In this document: positions 4,944 to 64,000 of the stretch, one piece after another
Layout: every line of letters begins with the position of its first letter
How positions within the stretch are numbered: position 1 is the stretch's first letter
Notes under the pieces: generated by a model
The model's input: only the letters and a program-made list of their open reading frames with translations
What the model was told of the DNA's origin: nothing
The model's database searches: none
IMG/VR virus record: IMGVR_UViG_3300029305_002470
Coordinates: 22,517-86,516 of that record
Direction: 5' to 3' (one strand)
DNA: 64,000 nt
Source: a virus
Taxonomy: Duplodnaviria > Caudoviricetes
Translations under genes and position numbers: made by a program

Positions 4944-6186
4944 TGTTATGTTCGTATAAGGTCGCAACGCTTATACCGTTCTCTTATGAACTGCTTATAT
5001 TTTCATATAAGACCAGACTATATGTTTTTCTTTTATTCTATATCTTTTATAATTTCACAATATTTATTATCTGTAGTACACAAATAATAAATAGCTTCTT
5101 GTAATTCTCCTATGGTTGGTGCTTCATAATTCCCTTTTATACGAATAATCTTAAATCCTTCTTGATATACAAATGCATCTCTATTAGCATCTTGCTTTTT
5201 TCTATTTTTATGCCAATACTGACCATCATATTCAATGTCAATCTTGCAACCATTGACATCTATCATACAATCCATACAAATTCTATCGTATATATATGAT
5301 GGATGTGCATTATTACCATATAAAGATATTAACATATCGCACATTATTCTTTCAACTTTAGATGTTGGATAATGACCATTGGCTAGTCTTGTTCGCCAAT
5401 ACTTATTACCAAACTCATCAGTTTGAGAATACCAATCTACACCATATTTTTTGCGCATAGTATTATGATATTTTTGTTTACTTGCAGGACATTGTATAGT
5501 ATATTCTACACCATATATATCCATCATAGACCTTTTAATCTTTTGTTTAATATCTTCGTTTTTAAAAACACAATTACACCCATATTTTTTTATATTAGTT
5601 TGTTGTGTCTTTAAACTTCGACATTTATAAGAAGAACAAGCGTCTATTGTGTCATCTTTATCATGTCTACTACGCCACTCTTTATATGTTTTTGTATACT
5701 CTTTACCACAAAAATCACATTTTACTGTTATTATTGCAGTACAAGATTTTGATAAATCATTTATATCAACTTCAAACTCATCACCACATTGTGTGAAACG
5801 ATATCCTAAATCCACATATCGTTTTTTATTAGCGTTATTCCATTTTAATAATGTTGTTTTACTTACTATCATTTTTAAATTCACTAATATATAATAAAAG
5901 AAATCAAATTTTTCCATTGCCATTAGCTTGCAATGTACTCCGACTCAATCGGATAGTCGTTGAAGGTCTTCCATATATTATAAATAATACTTAGGACTTT
6001 CCCTGCTGAACTTCCATTGTTGCTAAATACTTAGGATTTAACCTTATATTCATCTTGTATCTTTTTTCTGTTTTCACAACCATTCAGTTTATTGTTTCCA
6101 ATTACTGTTTAGGCATACAAGCTTTAGGATTTACCAGCAATTAACTTGAAGTACGTACCAATTACTTGATACGCAGAGCCTACTTA
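4944..6186 (-). mobile_element. Group I intron (IA-like) in terL, carrying an endonuclease ORF
   Basis: Read on the minus strand: P1 hairpin GAGT-AAGTAG-GCTC (6189-6176), TAATTGCTGGTAAATCCTAAAG, TTCAGCAGGG, R element TTCAACGACTA (5964-5954), S element CATATAGTCT (5024-5015), P9 hairpins. Boundaries are uncertain by a few nt. Confidence 0.85.
5033..5923 (-). CDS. Intron-encoded homing endonuclease, Vsr/EDxHD-like C-terminal nuclease with Zn-ribbon and KKYG repeats
   Basis: CDFCGKEY Zn motif, repeated N-x-KKYG units, C-terminal DIEYDGQYWH. Lies between the R and S elements. The true start may be the ATG at 5872. Confidence 0.75.
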   Translation of the reverse strand: MAMEKFDFFYYILVNLKMIVSKTTLLKWNNANKKRYVDLGYRFTQCGDEFEVDINDLSKSCTAIITVKCDFCGKEYTKTYKEWRSRHDKDDTIDACSSYKCRSLKTQQTNIKKYGCNCVFKNEDIKQKIKRSMMDIYGVEYTIQCPASKQKYHNTMRKKYGVDWYSQTDEFGNKYWRTRLANGHYPTSKVERIMCDMLISLYGNNAHPSYIYDRICMDCMIDVNGCKIDIEYDGQYWHKNRKKQDANRDAFVYQEGFKIIRIKGNYEAPTIGELQEAIYYLCTTDNKYCEIIKDIE

Positions 6187-14621: not shown

Positions 14622-15257
14622 ATGATTGAATATCACAAGATAGAACCACCATTCATTAGAGAAGATGGAACTAAGAAGCTTATTGAAGGTAAATTTAAAA
14701 ATGAAACATTAGAATTTCTAAAAGACCTCAAGTGGCAGTTTACTGAAAAAATTGATGGTACAAATATTTCTATTGTTTGGGATGGACATAAAGTAGAATT
14801 TCACGGAAGAACGGAAAGAGCGCAGATTCCTGCACATCTTGTAAATAAGCTTAATGACCTTTTCGGCGGTCAAGTAAATGAAGAAATGTTTGAACAAATA
14901 TTTGGAGATACTCCAATGATTTTATATGGAGAAGGATATGGATATAAAATACAAAATGGCGGAGCATATAGAGATGATGTATCATTTATTCTTTTCGATG
15001 TATATCAACCAACTACTGATGTATGGCTTAAGCGTGAAGCAGTAGAGAGTATTGCAAATCAGCTTGGAATTGAAGTAGTACCAATTATACTTGAAGGAAC
15101 TATAGATGATGCTGTTCAATTTGTTAAAACAGAACCACAGTCTACAATAGGTAAAGCTAAAATGGAAGGTGTTGTTGGTAGACCTTATATAGAATTAAAA
15201 GACAGAATGGGAAAAAGAGTTATTACAAAAATAAAAGTATTTGATTTTGTTAGGTAA
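14622..15257 (+). CDS. ATP-dependent RNA ligase (Rnl2-like nucleotidyltransferase domain)
   Basis: Motif I TEKIDGTN, motif III YGEGYG, IIIa FILFDV, IV MEGVV, V TKIK. Confidence 0.8.
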   Translation: MIEYHKIEPPFIREDGTKKLIEGKFKNETLEFLKDLKWQFTEKIDGTNISIVWDGHKVEFHGRTERAQIPAHLVNKLNDLFGGQVNEEMFEQIFGDTPMILYGEGYGYKIQNGGAYRDDVSFILFDVYQPTTDVWLKREAVESIANQLGIEVVPIILEGTIDDAVQFVKTEPQSTIGKAKMEGVVGRPYIELKDRMGKRVITKIKVFDFVR

Positions 15258-60916: not shown

Positions 60917-61416
60917 TGCATTTTGAAAAGGTTAGTTATGAACAGTGGTCAAAAGATTTGCCATACAAAAATATACCAGCTTCAACATTGATGAAATGGT
61001 ATCATGAAATTAAATTGCCACAGCAAGGCACTACATATTCAATGGGTGTAGATTTCTTTATGCCATATAAAACAAATATACTTCCATATAATAAAATTAA
61101 AATACCTACAGGAATCAGATGGGTATGTGACAAAGAAGAAGATAGAAAATATGGACTATTGATTGTGCCACGTAGTAGTATAGGTATTAAAAATGGTTTA
61201 AGACTTTTGAATACTATAGGTGTGGTTGATGCAGATTATTATCTATCCGATAATGAGGGACATATAATGCTGTTTATGGAAAATACAACAGATGATAATG
61301 TAGTTCTTAATAATGGCAAAGGCATAGTGCAAGGTCTTATTGTACCATATATTACACCACAGTTTGCTGAAACCAATACTGATAGACATGGTGGATTTGG
61401 TTCTACAGATTCATAA
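60916..61416 (+). CDS. dut: Trimeric dUTPase
   Basis: PRSSIG, NTIGVVDADYY, QG, RHGGFGST. Confidence 0.92.
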   Translation: MHFEKVSYEQWSKDLPYKNIPASTLMKWYHEIKLPQQGTTYSMGVDFFMPYKTNILPYNKIKIPTGIRWVCDKEEDRKYGLLIVPRSSIGIKNGLRLLNTIGVVDADYYLSDNEGHIMLFMENTTDDNVVLNNGKGIVQGLIVPYITPQFAETNTDRHGGFGSTDS

Positions 61417-61564
61417 TAAAATTTGTATTTTTTAAGGGGTGATTAGATAAGTTATTTATTAAATGAACAACTTATCAATAAGTAAGTTTTCTTTTGAAAT
61501 AGGATTAATTTTCTTTAAAAAACTGCGTGATTACTGAGTAACATACATAGGAGAAATATATATC

Positions 61565-61678
61565 ATGGCACAGAATTTTCAGGAATTTAAAAGAACAATG
61601 GCAAAGCTTGATGCACAGCTTAAAAAAGAAGAGGCAGAGCGTAAGGCACGAAAAGAATCTAAGACCAAAAAGAAATAA
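61565..61678 (+). CDS. Small basic protein (37 aa, not in ORF track)
   Basis: AGGAG RBS; MAQNFQEFKRTMAKLDAQLKKEEAERKARKESKTKKK. Confidence 0.55.
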   Translation: MAQNFQEFKRTMAKLDAQLKKEEAERKARKESKTKKK

Positions 61679-61692
61679 GGAGATAAATAGTT

Positions 61693-61851
61693 ATGGCAAG
61701 ACAGAAAGAGTTTTCAGAAGTAGAAGCTGAACTTTTTGAAATGATTTATACATATGCCATTAATAATCATATGAGTATTGGGGCAGTAGAATTTGTAACA
61801 AGAAGTGCAGTCAAATCTCTTAAAGATATTGCATTTGTTAACGAAGAATAA
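61693..61851 (+). CDS. Small hypothetical protein (52 aa, not in ORF track)
   Basis: AAGGAG RBS. Confidence 0.55.
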   Translation: MARQKEFSEVEAELFEMIYTYAINNHMSIGAVEFVTRSAVKSLKDIAFVNEE

Positions 61852-61886
61852 AAAAGTGTAGAATTCTACATTTTTAAAAATAATGC

Positions 61887-61915
61887 TTGACAAATATTAT
61901 AAAATGTGTTATAAT
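61887..61915 (+). promoter_or_regulatory. sigma-A promoter for the tRNA-like RNA
   Basis: TTGACA-N17-TATAAT with extended TG. Confidence 0.85.
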
Positions 61916-61930
61916 ATATAAGTCAATTAA

Positions 61931-62053
61931 GTTTAGTGGCGGAATATGTAGACGCTGTTGCGTGAAGATTCGGTTGCTGATGCATAAGCAAACTTAGTCA
62001 CGAGCTAAAGTAACGAAATCCGAATCATGTGAAGTGCAAATCTTCACCTAAAC
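61931..62053 (+). ncRNA. tRNA-like structured RNA with an expanded, branched anticodon domain
   Basis: GTTTAG/CTAAAC acceptor-like stem, Leu-type D arm TGGCGGAATATGTAGACGC, T arm GTGAAG-TGCAAAT-CTTCAC, inner stems GATTCGG/CCGAATC and GTTGCT/AGTAAC; no CCA. Confidence 0.6.
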
Positions 62054-62079
62054 ATTTTTAAAAATATTTAAAAATACTC

Positions 62080-62108
62080 TTGACAAATTAAAGAAAATAT
62101 GTTATAAT
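62080..62108 (+). promoter_or_regulatory. sigma-A promoter for the tRNA array
   Basis: TTGACA-N17-TATAAT with extended TG. Confidence 0.85.
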
Positions 62109-62150
62109 ACATCTTGTTGAGTGAGATTAAAAAACTTACTCAACAATTGA

Positions 62151-62224
62151 TGGGGTATAGCGTAATGGTAGCGCAAGGGACTTTGACTCCCTATGTCTGT
62201 GTTCAACTCACAGTACCCCAGCCA
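62151..62224 (+). tRNA. tRNA-Gln(UUG)
   Basis: Cloverleaf, AGGGA-CTTTGAC-TCCCT, CCA end. Confidence 0.9.
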
Positions 62225-62263
62225 CATGGTAGCATAGCTCAGTTGGTAGAGCGGGTGGCTGTT

Positions 62264-62731
62264 TACTTGACCTTACTAAGTTTAATTAAAAAAACAAATG
62301 GATAGTAAACAAAAAGGAAATATTACTGAACTTGAAACAATGTTAGCTTTTTTAAAATTAGGTTATAATGTTTTAATTCCTTATGGAGATTGTGAACGTT
62401 ATGATTATGTTGTAGATGTAAAAGGTAATTTTATTCGAGTTCAAAGTAAAACATCACATTCTGATGATGAGGGAGCTTCTTTTAAATTTGGTGGAAGAAG
62501 CTGTAATCGAAAAGATGGTAAAATTATTCATCATCAGTATACTAAAGACGAAATTGATTATTTTGCAACAACATTTAATGGAAAATATTATTTAATTCCT
62601 GTGGAAGAATGTGGAGCAAATAAGAGACTTCGTATTCTTCCAACAAAAAATGGACAAGCTAAAGATATTACTTGGGCTAAAGATTATGAATTGGATGAGG
62701 TAGTTAAAACTTGGTAAGTTGATGTGTAAGC
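62264..62731 (+). mobile_element. Anticodon-loop insertion / intron encoding an endonuclease, no group I core
   Basis: Only 34 nt before and 14 nt after the ORF; the two insert ends base-pair with each other. Confidence 0.8.
62298..62717 (+). CDS. PD-(D/E)XK endonuclease (group I intron-associated, I-Ssp6803I-like family)
   Basis: KG-I-E------LK-GY-V--P-GD--RYD-VVD------RVQ-K...Y----IDYFA. Confidence 0.82.
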   Translation: MDSKQKGNITELETMLAFLKLGYNVLIPYGDCERYDYVVDVKGNFIRVQSKTSHSDDEGASFKFGGRSCNRKDGKIIHHQYTKDEIDYFATTFNGKYYLIPVEECGANKRLRILPTKNGQAKDITWAKDYELDEVVKTW

Positions 62732-62771
62732 AACCACTGTGTCCTAGGTTCGAGTCCTAGTGTTACCGCCA

Positions 62772-63045
62772 AAGACAGTTGATACTGTCTTGCAAATATT
62801 ATAAACAACAATGTAAATTAAAGTGGATGTTAACTTAAACTTTAAAGAGAAACGCTTGACGACCCAAGTTGGTTAAATCTCGGTAGCCAATACAACAGTA
62901 GCGCATAGTACAAAAATTTCGACTATATAGCCGCAAGTCGTGGAAGAAAAATTTCGAAGTTGTTTATAACTATTAACGTCCAGTCTAGCTCAAGACGTAA
63001 AATTATTCTTGATAATACTTGAAGGCTAGTAGAGAGTATTATCAA
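62772..63045 (+). ncRNA. Unassigned structured RNA within the tRNA array
   Basis: Long-range stem TTATAAACAAC/GTTGTTTATAA (62799-62809 with 62959-62969) and two further hairpins with complementary loops. Confidence 0.4.
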
Positions 63046-63049
63046 TTAT

Positions 63050-63126
63050 TGCGGAGTGGTAGCAGTGGTTAGCTCGTCAGGCTCATAACCTGAAGGTCAT
63101 AAGTTCGAATCTTATCTCCGCAACCA
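63050..63126 (+). tRNA. tRNA-Met(CAU), initiator-like
   Basis: TCAGG-CTCATAA-CCTGA, CCA end. Confidence 0.88.
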
Positions 63127-63131
63127 ATTAT

Positions 63132-63208
63132 GCACAGGTAGTTCAGTAGGTTAGAGCAGTCGTCTTATAAGCGACTTGTCGTTGGTTCAAGTCCAACCCT
63201 GTGTACCA
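63132..63208 (+). tRNA. tRNA-Ile(UAU)
   Basis: GTCGT-CTTATAA-GCGAC, CCA end. Confidence 0.88.
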
Positions 63209-63212
63209 ATAT

Positions 63213-63289
63213 GCTCCTGTAGACCAATTGGCAGAGTCATCCGATTTAAGCTCGGAACAGTGTGGGTTCGAATCCCACTAGGAGTACCA
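63213..63289 (+). tRNA. tRNA-Leu(UAA), short variable loop
   Basis: TCCGA-TTTAAGC-TCGGA, CCA end. Confidence 0.85.
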
Positions 63290-63294
63290 ATTAT

Positions 63295-63369
63295 TGGCGA
63301 GTAGTCCAATGGCAGAGACTAGGGTCGCTACCGAATAGTAACAAGTTCGAATCTTGTTCTCGCCAACCA
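63295..63369 (+). tRNA. tRNA-like gene with an aberrant anticodon arm (undetermined)
   Basis: Acceptor TGGCGAG/CTCGCCA, D and T arms and CCA are intact; the anticodon stem does not form canonically. Confidence 0.6.
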
Positions 63370-63372
63370 TAT

Positions 63373-63449
63373 GGGTTACTATCCCAATCGGCAGAGGAAG
63401 TAGGCTCAAACCCTATAAAGTCTGGGTTCGAATCCCAGGTGACCCACCA
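63373..63449 (+). tRNA. tRNA-Leu(CAA), short variable loop
   Basis: GTAGG-CTCAAAC-CCTAT, CCA end. Confidence 0.85.
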
Positions 63450-63453
63450 ATAT

Positions 63454-63528
63454 GTTCAGATAGCTCAGTGGTAGAGCGTTGGGTTGAAGCCCCATGCGTC
63501 ATAGGTTCAAATCCTATTCTGAACACCA
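63454..63528 (+). tRNA. tRNA-Phe(GAA)
   Basis: TGGG-TTGAAGC-CCCA, CCA end. Confidence 0.88.
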
Positions 63529-63531
63529 TCA

Positions 63532-63614
63532 AAGCCACATACAGCAAATTTAAATGTATGGTTACAAATTTTGCTTTGAAAACAAATTAATGGGTTCAAT
63601 TCCCAATGTGGCTT
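63532..63614 (+). ncRNA. tRNA-like element (pseudo-tRNA)
   Basis: AAGCCACAT/ATGTGGCTT stem, ACAGCAA in place of a D arm, T-like arm TGGG-TTCAATT-CCCA; no CCA. Confidence 0.5.
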
Positions 63615-63620
63615 GTTTAT

Positions 63621-63697
63621 GCACCCTTAGTTCATTAGGTTAGAACGCTGTGCTGATAACGCAGAGGTGCTTGGTTCAAATCCAAGAGGGTGTACCA
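63621..63697 (+). tRNA. tRNA-Ile(GAU)
   Basis: CTGTG-CTGATAA-CGCAG, CCA end. Confidence 0.9.
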
Positions 63698-63701
63698 ATG
63701 T

Positions 63702-63776
63702 GTGGGTTATAGTCTAATGGTAAGACGCAAGATTGTGGCTCTTGTCATCTGAGTTCGATTCTCAGTAATCCACCCA
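63702..63776 (+). tRNA. tRNA-His(GUG)
   Basis: CAAGA-TTGTGGC-TCTTG, G-1:C73, CCA end. Confidence 0.9.
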
Positions 63777-63795
63777 ATCTAATTAATTAGACTAT

Positions 63796-63869
63796 GTGGG
63801 TGTAAGCTAAAGGAAAACGGTATGCTTTGGGAGCATACATTGTGAGTTCGAGTCTCACCTCCCGCACCA
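63796..63869 (+). tRNA. tRNA-Pro(UGG)
   Basis: TATGC-TTTGGGA-GCATA, CCA end; one acceptor mismatch. Confidence 0.82.
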
Positions 63870-63873
63870 ATAT

Positions 63874-63949
63874 GGGGCTATAGCTCAGTTGGGAGAGCAC
63901 ATGCCTTGCACGCATGGGGTCGAGGGTTCAAGTCCCTCTAGCTCCACCA
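63874..63949 (+). tRNA. tRNA-Ala(UGC)
   Basis: GGGGCTA acceptor with G3:U70, CATGC-CTTGCAC-GCATG, CCA end. Confidence 0.92.
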
Positions 63950-64000
63950 AAAGGTGAACTCTACCTAAATTCATATCAAGGAAACCAATAGATATAATAG

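Follow-up and report, generated by a model that had tools for sequence, protein, structure and literature searches.

A mobile, endonuclease-encoding insert in phage tRNA genes whose end pairs with the anticodon: a candidate protein-spliced intron

The window analysed here is a stretch of 64,000 nucleotides (nt) from the virus record IMGVR_UViG_3300029305_002470. In the tRNA array at its end lies a tRNA-Asn gene split by an insert that encodes a homing endonuclease. Positions refer to this window unless another contig is named, and tRNA nucleotides follow the standard numbering (Table 1). The 5' half of the gene contains the acceptor strand, the D arm, the anticodon-stem strand, C32, U33 and the anticodon. 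The 3' half opens with A37 A38; it supplies the second strand of the anticodon stem, the variable loop, the T arm and the rest of the acceptor stem, G73 included. When joined, the halves form a 76-nt cloverleaf with the loop CUGUUAA, G73 and an encoded CCA. A sequence-only reading of the window had proposed that removal of exactly this segment restores tRNA-Asn(GUU) from two intact halves, and that the insert ends in C and consists almost entirely of a PD-(D/E)XK open reading frame (ORF). All of this held: ARAGORN called the gene spliced in silico as tRNA-Asn(gtt), an uninterrupted allele exists in the sister contig L197 (see below), and 420 of the 468 nt are coding. The 48 non-coding nt are divided into 34 on the 5' side and 14 on the 3' side of the ORF.

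Table 1. Positions of the split tRNA-Asn gene, its insert and other features discussed in the text
Feature	Sequence	Positions	Strand	Remarks
RNA-ligase-family nucleotidyltransferase	window	14622..15257	+	211 aa; PF09414, E 3.9e-21
sigma-70-type promoter	window	62080..62108	+	TTGACA, 17 nt, TATAAT with TG; 12/12 consensus match
tRNA-Asn 5' half	window	62228..62263	+	nt 1-36; closed by anticodon GTT at 62261-62263
helix a, 5' arm	window	62261..62266	+	anticodon G34 U35 U36 and first 3 insert nt; 6 bp with the 3' arm, including one G.U
mobile insert, candidate intron	window	62264..62731	+	468 nt, between tRNA nt 36 and 37
internal-loop motif, 5' side	window	62267..62271	+	TTGAC (family YTGAC; box D-like CUGA)
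helix b, 5' arm	window	62272..62283	+	5' untranslated part of the insert; 12 bp with 62707-62718
homing endonuclease gene, I-Ssp6803I family	window	62298..62717	+	139 aa, 420 nt, PD-(D/E)XK; TAA stop 62715-62717
helix b, 3' arm	window	62707..62718	+	overlaps the last ORF codons and the TAA stop
internal-loop motif, 3' side	window	62719..62725	+	TTGATGT (family YTGATGT; box C-like UGAUG)
helix a, 3' arm	window	62726..62731	+	GTAAGC, last 6 insert nt; final AGC pairs with anticodon GUU
tRNA-Asn 3' half	window	62732..62771	+	nt 37-73 (62732-62768), then encoded CCA 62769-62771
four split tRNAs of one phage	L184	1289-1816, 8367-8914, 9725-10267, 11200-11738		Met-type CAT, Thr TGT, two Lys TTT
tRNA-Gln(TTG) insert	L015	499-1405		830-nt insert after the anticodon
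second kind of tRNA insert	L028; L036; L015; L074	2382-2530; 3180-3336; 1977-2913; 142-~1070		
ROOL, tmRNA and OLE-like matches (listed jointly)	L025; L066; L070	3111-3417; 979-1402; 2021-2108		

The ORF product matched the Pfam family PF11645 (PDDEXK_5) with an E value of 2.8e-31 and 108.8 bits (curated cut-off 26.1), and chain A of PDB entry 2OST, the homing endonuclease I-Ssp6803I, with an E value of 1.6e-9. Residues P28, D31, D36, Q49 and K51 of the PD-(D/E)XK site are invariant in 14 diverse relatives. The enzyme presumably cuts insert-free tRNA genes of co-infecting phages and so spreads the element by homing.

The insert is a precise, mobile element. A 28-nt probe spanning the predicted exon junction matched two metagenome contigs, one of which, L197, shares the promoter, tRNA-Gln, the downstream spacer and tRNA-Met with the window, but its tRNA-Asn(GTT), at 1714-1789, is uninterrupted. 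This gene is identical to the joined halves at 74 of 76 positions, the differences being one D-loop base (5' half) and one T-loop base (3' half). Between the window and L197 the flanks are 70-87% identical, tRNA-Gln 94.6% and tRNA-Met 85.7%, as against 97.4% for the exons of the split gene, which are therefore the best-conserved segment of the region in this comparison. The cultured Enterococcus phage EFP01 likewise carries a homologous endonuclease (57.6% identity) in a 463-nt insert (KY549443, ~105278-105740) within a split tRNA that is unannotated in its record. In about 33 Schiekvirus relatives, also Enterococcus phages, both EFP01 flanks match, the 463 nt are absent and a tRNA-Asn-GTT is annotated in their place. 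The empty allele reads CTGTT/AACC (the slash marks the junction) and its exons appear identical to those of EFP01; this alignment was read by eye since MAFFT misplaced the 5' exon. Presence and absence at the exact site in both comparisons thus establish that the insert is precise and mobile. The end of the EFP01 insert (L001, ~2900-2930) resembles the D-arm region of its own 5' exon (2432-2460), and MAFFT put the exon of the relatives there; the likeness may be accidental, a scar of recombination, or the sign of an alternative pairing partner.

With default settings ARAGORN calls ten tRNAs in the array and none between 62225 and 63049, so that the split gene is missed. Its intron mode (-i) detects the gene, but places the junction 1 nt earlier and labels it Asp(gtc). 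With that cut the insert would end in G and be preceded by U (-1), like a group I intron. We rejected this junction because the uninterrupted alleles in L197 and in the EFP01 relatives read as tRNA-Asn and because every other member of the family described below fits a junction between nt 36 and 37. The upstream region holds two perfect sigma-70-type promoters, which point to a bacterial host. One of them (Table 1) directly precedes tRNA-Gln and the split tRNA-Asn, and it also lies upstream of the insert-free L197 allele. No comparable promoter was found inside the insert; the tabulated one is the only evident promoter for the endonuclease, and the ORF would therefore be expressible only from the tRNA operon transcript. 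Downstream, a 278-nt ORF-less spacer (62772-63049) separates the split gene from tRNA-Met. It gave no Rfam match, is about 70% conserved in L197 and is absent from EFP01.

Homologous inserts were collected by two protein scans of IMG/VR and one of species-representative genomes, which gave 84 loci, and were curated to 53 unique split tRNAs, plus L036, which was read by eye. The 53 inserts measure 453-488 nt, interrupt phage tRNAs with nine different anticodons and all lie between nt 36 and 37. As read from the per-locus table, the split genes are Asn (GTT), 23; Thr (TGT), 9; Lys (TTT), 9; Ile (GAT), 5, plus L036; Met-type (CAT), 4; and one each of Lys (CTT), Thr (AGT), Arg (ACG) and Ala (TGC). 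Bacillota are the apparent hosts: EFP01 infects Enterococcus, and other members were binned with metagenome-assembled genomes (MAGs) of Clostridium, Erysipelotrichaceae and further Bacillota. More distant endonuclease relatives (33-47% identity) are free-standing genes between tRNA genes, and it follows that the whole family targets tRNA genes and that the form inside a tRNA is derived.

The endonuclease ORF is intact in 53 of 53 inserts, in four of them only with TAG read as sense; sampling through the protein biases the set towards intact ORFs. A narrow test for ORF-less derivatives, a search of IMG/VR with the exact 3' motif, returned 12 true matches, all ORF-bearing and already known. In L024 and L026 (also L048 and L058) the ORF has in-frame TAG codons at conserved positions and ends in TAA. 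TAG probably stands for an amino acid in these phages; several related contigs carry tRNAs with the anticodon CTA.

Further observations concern single members of the family. A 190-kb phage (L184, the contig of L017) has four split tRNAs within 11 kb. The split tRNA-Asn genes of L007 and L009 have inserts that are 97-99% identical and flanks that are 95% identical, with exons that are just 74% identical and both fold perfectly; the comparison shows that the insert, or else the tRNA allele, moves, and the tRNA body has been swapped or has evolved far faster than the sequence around it. An unusual T loop, ATCGTAA instead of TTCRANN, recurs at the distant loci L005, L006, L026 (3' exon) and L057 and is probably not random decay.

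The ends of the insert pair with each other and with the anticodon. In the window this had been noticed for 62261-62266 with 62726-62731 (6 bp) and for 62272-62276 with 62714-62718, and the second helix was found to extend to 12 bp. Across the family the pairing takes the form of a rod that starts from the pair U33-A37 and continues through a helix a of about 10 bp and a small, asymmetric, conserved internal loop into a helix b of 12 bp or more, which closes off the ORF. In the minimum free energy (MFE) fold of the whole 544-nt precursor the cloverleaf is kept and the anticodon stem is extended into the rod (z -4.76). Exon pairs with exon as far as U33-A37; at the foot of helix a comes the 3' junction, and three pairs further up the 5' junction. 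The 3-nt stagger of the junctions that had been pointed out is thus real, yet it follows automatically from an insertion after nt 36 and a helix that continues the anticodon stem, and it carries no extra information.

Covariation of the terminal helix among homologous inserts, the check that the sequence-only reading had recommended, was pronounced. In 46 distinct sequences the anticodon and the first seven insert bases were set against the last ten insert bases without gaps, and 388 of 460 cells were Watson-Crick or G.U, compared with 247±9 (maximum 278) when partners were exchanged at random between loci (1000 shuffles) and 86-201 when the partner was displaced by 1-3 nt. There were 75 G.U against 6 A.C combinations, which argues for selection on the sense-strand RNA rather than for a DNA palindrome. 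Pairs 1-4 of helix a are kept in 45, 44, 46 and 46 of the 46 rods (96-100%) and pairs 5-10 in 46-91%. The last three nt of the insert follow all nine anticodons: AGC with GUU, AAA with UUU, AUC with GAU, AUG with CAU, ACA or AUA with UGU, AAG with CUU, AUU with AGU, CGU with ACG and GUA with UGC. Helix b also shows compensatory changes among loci, for example CTTAC/GTAAG in the window and CTCAC/GTGAG in L004. These patterns point to strong selection at the RNA level for pairing of the insert end with the anticodon throughout the family.

The internal-loop motif pair YTGAC/YTGATGT is present in 18 of the 53 inserts, the subclass of the window; the other subclass has CAAAC/GCAUUG. As RNA, YUGAC/YUGAUGU would resemble box D and box C with tandem G.A pairs. 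A kink-turn was considered for this loop and set aside, kept as a lead only: the loop is 1 x 2 nt and not a 3-nt bulge, and there is the second subclass.

The split tRNAs are in good condition. ARAGORN called the expected tRNA in 52 of 53 genes spliced in silico, the exception being L016, which has a D-arm duplication. Stem pairing averaged 19.57 of 21 pairs in split genes and 19.39 of 21 in 318 intact neighbours. U33 is present in 96% of both sets, a purine at 37 in 100% of the split and 99% of the intact genes, and nt 37-38 are AA in 50 of 53 split genes. Of the signs named beforehand as speaking against a functional intron, decayed halves were seen in none of the 53 relatives but L016, and the end pairing is conserved. 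Within 20 kb around the split genes of 20 insert-bearing phages no intact gene shares the anticodon of a non-CAT split gene, and in several of these the split gene supplies an amino acid that the intact tRNAs there do not cover (Ile in L189, for instance, or Asn in L177 and L180).

Two known ways of removing an intron from a tRNA were examined. Rfam gave no intron or ribozyme match at E<=10 in 61400-64000 of the window, and no group I, group II or small-ribozyme match at E<=0.1 in 12 related loci. As a positive control, RF00028 matched elsewhere in the same phage genome, outside the window (G000:C1:10657-11053, minus strand; 46.3 bits, E 2.1e-9, full model length, just under the gathering score); a weaker, partial RF00028 match (21.7 bits) lies in the window at ~5919-6042 on the minus strand. 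The U.G wobble of a group I splice site is absent. U36 precedes 51 of the 53 inserts and is Watson-Crick paired with the third-last insert base in 46 of 46 rods (U-A in 44); it is never paired with G, and its partner is not a 5' guide. A terminal G is not conserved, the last base being C in 27, A in 17, G in 5 and T in 4 inserts and always complementing nt 34. All 34 + 14 non-coding nt lie in the rod, which leaves no room for a structured RNA of ~150-200 nt, and the ORF holds no doubly constrained block, the identical-codon fraction among same-amino-acid pairs being flat (0.43-0.76). With no core, no U.G pair, no terminal G and no room, a group I intron was ruled out, and the earlier description of the insert as ribozyme-less is upheld. 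In L084 and L087 (1911-2175) a free-standing endonuclease relative stands directly upstream of a tRNA with an ORF-less insert of 188-190 nt that ends in G; this insert looks group I-like by eye, yet there was no Rfam call.

Nor is a bulge-helix-bulge formed. By inspection and in the MFE fold, both junctions belong to one continuous helix, either within it or at its base, and the 4-bp central helix required of nt 32-35 cannot form. The splicing endonuclease EndA/Sen (PF01974) was found in none of 41 insert-bearing phage records, while the same search was positive in four archaeal controls; it covered the phage records. A bulge-helix-bulge intron was therefore ruled out by the continuous helix, the position at 36/37 and not 37/38, and the lack of EndA in the 41 records. 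The pairing between anticodon and intron that characterizes archaeal and eukaryal tRNA introns was found, at the three anticodon positions, in 45, 44 and 46 of 46 rods. Of the 'archaeal/eukaryote-like' label that the insert had been given, the general logic stands and the details of junction structure, position and enzyme do not.

A ligase encoded in the window had been suggested as the sealing enzyme. The gene at 14622 is indeed of the RNA-ligase family, but it is not tied to the insert: such ligases are common in large phages rich in tRNA genes, whether or not these carry it. In this phage record, which is 71% complete, RtcB had no match; neither had Rnl1-type ligases, a search that matched no control genome either and is uninformative. 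A ligase census was made on near-complete records (>=90%), 25 insert-bearing and 11 controls without an insert in a tRNA. PF09414-like proteins, mostly distinct from DNA ligase, occur in 22 of the 25, RtcB in two of the other three and either type in 24; among the 11 controls the figures are four, five and seven. The difference (24/25 against 7/11; Fisher p 0.023) is given no weight, the records being related to one another. A matching RtcB gene is carried by 21 insert-free relatives of EFP01, and in EFP01 itself, as in the L005 phage, no ligase other than RtcB was found. The association of ligase and insert was dropped as support, since it is confounded by the kinship of the records and by RtcB in insert-free relatives.

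We give about an even chance to the proposal that the insert is an intron removed by protein-dependent cutting and ligation. The whole operon transcript would fold as a normal tRNA body bearing the rod, proteins would cleave the rod on each strand where exon meets insert, and closure of the anticodon loop by an RNA ligase would yield a functional tRNA-Asn. Candidates for this ligase are the Rnl-type enzyme of this phage, RtcB in other phages, or a host enzyme, and either the released insert or the precursor would serve as mRNA for the endonuclease. Since the element has to be functional as soon as it enters a new genome, the cutter should be a ubiquitous RNase of host or phage, or the protein of the insert itself. 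In favour of splicing stand the precise, mobile insertion, the RNA-level constraint on the rod, whose strictest pairs touch the junctions, the lack of a ribozyme, the intact endonuclease ORFs, the undecayed tRNAs with their AA at nt 37-38, the exons as the most conserved segment in the L197 comparison, the split genes that alone serve their anticodon or amino acid within 20 kb, and the phage with four split tRNAs.

Several points weigh against this proposal. No candidate splicing endonuclease was identified, EndA being absent from all 41 phage records. RNase III leaves a 2-nt stagger, and cuts 3 bp apart in a helix fit neither this nor a bulge-helix-bulge. The intact exons could reflect recent homing into working genes; the apparent identity of the EFP01 exons with the tRNA of its relatives fits such a recent invasion, and the divergence of inserts correlates weakly with that of exons (rho 0.30). 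As a clock for the age of insertion this co-divergence was discarded as uninformative, with exon identity saturated at ~70%. No ORF-less derivative appeared in the limited search, whereas persistent spliced introns often leave them; intact ORFs without an ORF-less copy are compatible with active homing and equally with a protein required in splicing. Ligases say little about the insert, since seven of the 11 controls and the 21 EFP01 relatives have them without it. Two chemically different types, RtcB and Rnl, occur among insert-bearing phages; they need different end chemistry, and the ligase data therefore neither identify a pathway nor argue against one.

A less probable but serious alternative is that the insert is never spliced and sits as a selfish element in its own recognition site, where it gains self-immunity at the cost of a dispensable tRNA, the tRNA body and the rod serving the endonuclease only. 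RNase P and RNase Z would trim the operon transcript, tRNA-like ends would stabilise the embedded mRNA, and intact halves would reflect recent homing. In the engineered 'tRNA scaffold' a compact tRNA frame stabilises an embedded RNA in this way, and such a scaffold, to be stable, would call for just this kind of rod, flush with the anticodon stem. Relatives of the endonuclease are free-standing genes next to tRNA genes in many phages, elements of that sort do without an intron, and presence or absence between close relatives is compatible with recent invasion; that the only promoter of the ORF is that of the tRNA operon, and that no EndA was found in the phage records, also favour this explanation. 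A scaffold, however, needs no canonical anticodon, no U33 and no A37-A38, and would not require the anticodon pairs to be the strictest of the rod (96-100% as against 46-91%). It also sits poorly with 52 of 53 split genes free of decay, L016 alone being broken, with exons more conserved than every flank in the L197 comparison, and with a phage that tolerates four inserts, and several phages would then lack the amino acid concerned among the tRNAs of their 20-kb windows.

A special case of the cut-and-ligate proposal, which we consider unlikely, is that the PD-(D/E)XK protein itself cuts an RNA rod that mimics its DNA target, a ubiquitous ligase then sealing the ends. A symmetric enzyme that cuts DNA around nt 35 would find both positions in the rod: the left half copies the DNA site (U33-A37, G34-C, U35.G, U36-A), and base pair 35 is the centre of symmetry between the two junctions, as needed for a dimeric enzyme. 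I-Ssp6803I leaves a 3-nt 3' overhang. The right half of the rod, however, is unlike the DNA target, and we know of no RNA cleavage by any member of the I-Ssp6803I family. Of all gene products, only that of the ORF enters naive genomes together with the insert, its catalytic motif is invariant, and 53 of 53 intact ORFs with no ORF-less copy seen are as expected if the protein is needed, although sampling through the protein favours intact ORFs. The tRNA splicing endonucleases have a PD-(D/E)XK fold (PMC3424549), and a descent of bulge-helix-bulge introns from group I introns has been proposed (PMC6125680). A metal-dependent PD-(D/E)XK site would leave a 5'-phosphate and a 3'-OH, ends that suit Rnl-type ligases and not RtcB, the sole ligase found in EFP01 and the L005 phage. 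That Bacillota phages excise a tRNA intron by means of its own homing endonuclease is a doubtful prospect; it would be a living example of the route proposed from mobile self-splicing introns to protein-spliced tRNA introns, in which the cutting passes to a homing endonuclease, or to a relative of the restriction-fold splicing endonucleases, as the ribozyme is lost.

Very improbable is a cryptic self-splicing RNA that overlaps the ORF, or a ribozyme acting in trans (from the spacer 62772-63049 or the group I intron at G000:C1:10657-11053): the U at nt 36, the group I-like RNA elsewhere in this phage, the endonuclease relatives in the group I intron of a tRNA-fMet (PMC1995217) and the failure of the Rfam model on some small tRNA group I introns, noted by Williams (2020), speak for it, and against it stand the 48 non-coding nt engaged in the rod, the strict Watson-Crick pairing of U36, a last base that follows nt 34, the lack of any Rfam match at the thresholds given, the flat codon profile and a spacer that is not conserved in EFP01.

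The contigs of the set hold other inserts and RNAs. In L015 an 830-nt insert follows the anticodon of tRNA-Gln(TTG), and its last three nt, CAA, pair with that anticodon; the pairing rule is the same with a larger cargo, and no Rfam intron model matched. A second kind of insert in tRNAs is recognised by its conserved 3' end, in which ...TCAAnCACCAC comes after the hairpin GAGTGCAAnnCTC; it, too, gave no Rfam match. It occurs in ORF-less forms of 74 and 83 nt and in long forms of 852-862 nt, and the short forms cannot be group I introns. Beside the tRNA arrays there were also matches to ROOL RNA (142 bits), tmRNA (74 bits) and an OLE-like RNA (53 bits).

The family matters under either of the two leading explanations. 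To our knowledge, only self-splicing introns (groups I and II) are known in bacteria and their viruses, and tRNA introns removed by proteins count as a hallmark of archaea and eukaryotes. If the insert is spliced, protein-dependent tRNA splicing extends to the bacterial world, and the old proposal that such introns descend from mobile group I introns (PMC6125680) becomes testable; if it is not, a selfish gene has found a new way to exploit a tRNA. Standard tRNA finders miss the split genes, and the tRNA complements of phages are therefore under-counted. The question is approachable at the bench, the cultured phage EFP01 carrying the element and dozens of sequenced relatives the empty site.

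In full-text literature searches no account came up of tRNA inserts in bacteria or phages that lack a ribozyme and bear an endonuclease gene, and the insert apparently belongs to a large, widespread and undescribed phage family. Bacterial tRNA introns were extended to 21 cases, all group I, by Williams (2020). The tRNA-fMet gene of Synechocystis PCC 6803 has a 655-nt group I intron with a 150-aa ORF for I-Ssp6803I (PMC1995217). Like the insert of the window, that intron is mobile, occupies an anticodon-loop site and encodes a PF11645 endonuclease. The window insert differs in having 468 nt, of which 48 are non-coding, no catalytic core, no U.G pair and no terminal G, and in ends that pair mutually and with the anticodon and not as P1/P10. 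The Synechocystis intron, too, follows a U at nt 36.

Free-standing PF11645 genes beside tRNA genes were found in Kuttervirus, in Vibrio, Synechococcus and Streptomyces phages, in Pectobacterium phage My1 and, among archaeal viruses, in Halorubrum virus HSTV-4. They share the protein family and the neighbourhood of phage tRNA arrays with the insert, and are probably the evolutionary source of the inserts in tRNAs, but they interrupt nothing, whereas the window copy lies inside a tRNA and has a terminal rod that covaries with the anticodon. The intervening sequences of bacterial 23S rRNA are likewise ribozyme-less, with ends paired in a helix open to cleavage by a host RNase; they are not known to carry a homing endonuclease gene and are excised without religation. 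Fragmented rRNA works, whereas a tRNA nicked after the anticodon is not expected to, and a ligation step would therefore be needed here.

The closest parallel in logic lies with the archaeal bulge-helix-bulge introns, which are cut by EndA and sealed by RtcB and some of which carry homing endonuclease genes (PMC6125680, PMC3424549). The window insert lacks the bulge-helix-bulge, lies at 36/37 and not at 37/38, belongs to a phage of a bacterial host, comes from a family without EndA in 41 records, and encodes a PD-(D/E)XK enzyme, those of archaeal introns being reported as LAGLIDADG in PMC6125680. Both, nevertheless, are ribozyme-less elements in a stable-RNA gene that can hold a homing endonuclease gene and pair with the anticodon, and the removal presumed for the window insert, a protein cut followed by a ligase, is that of the archaeal introns.

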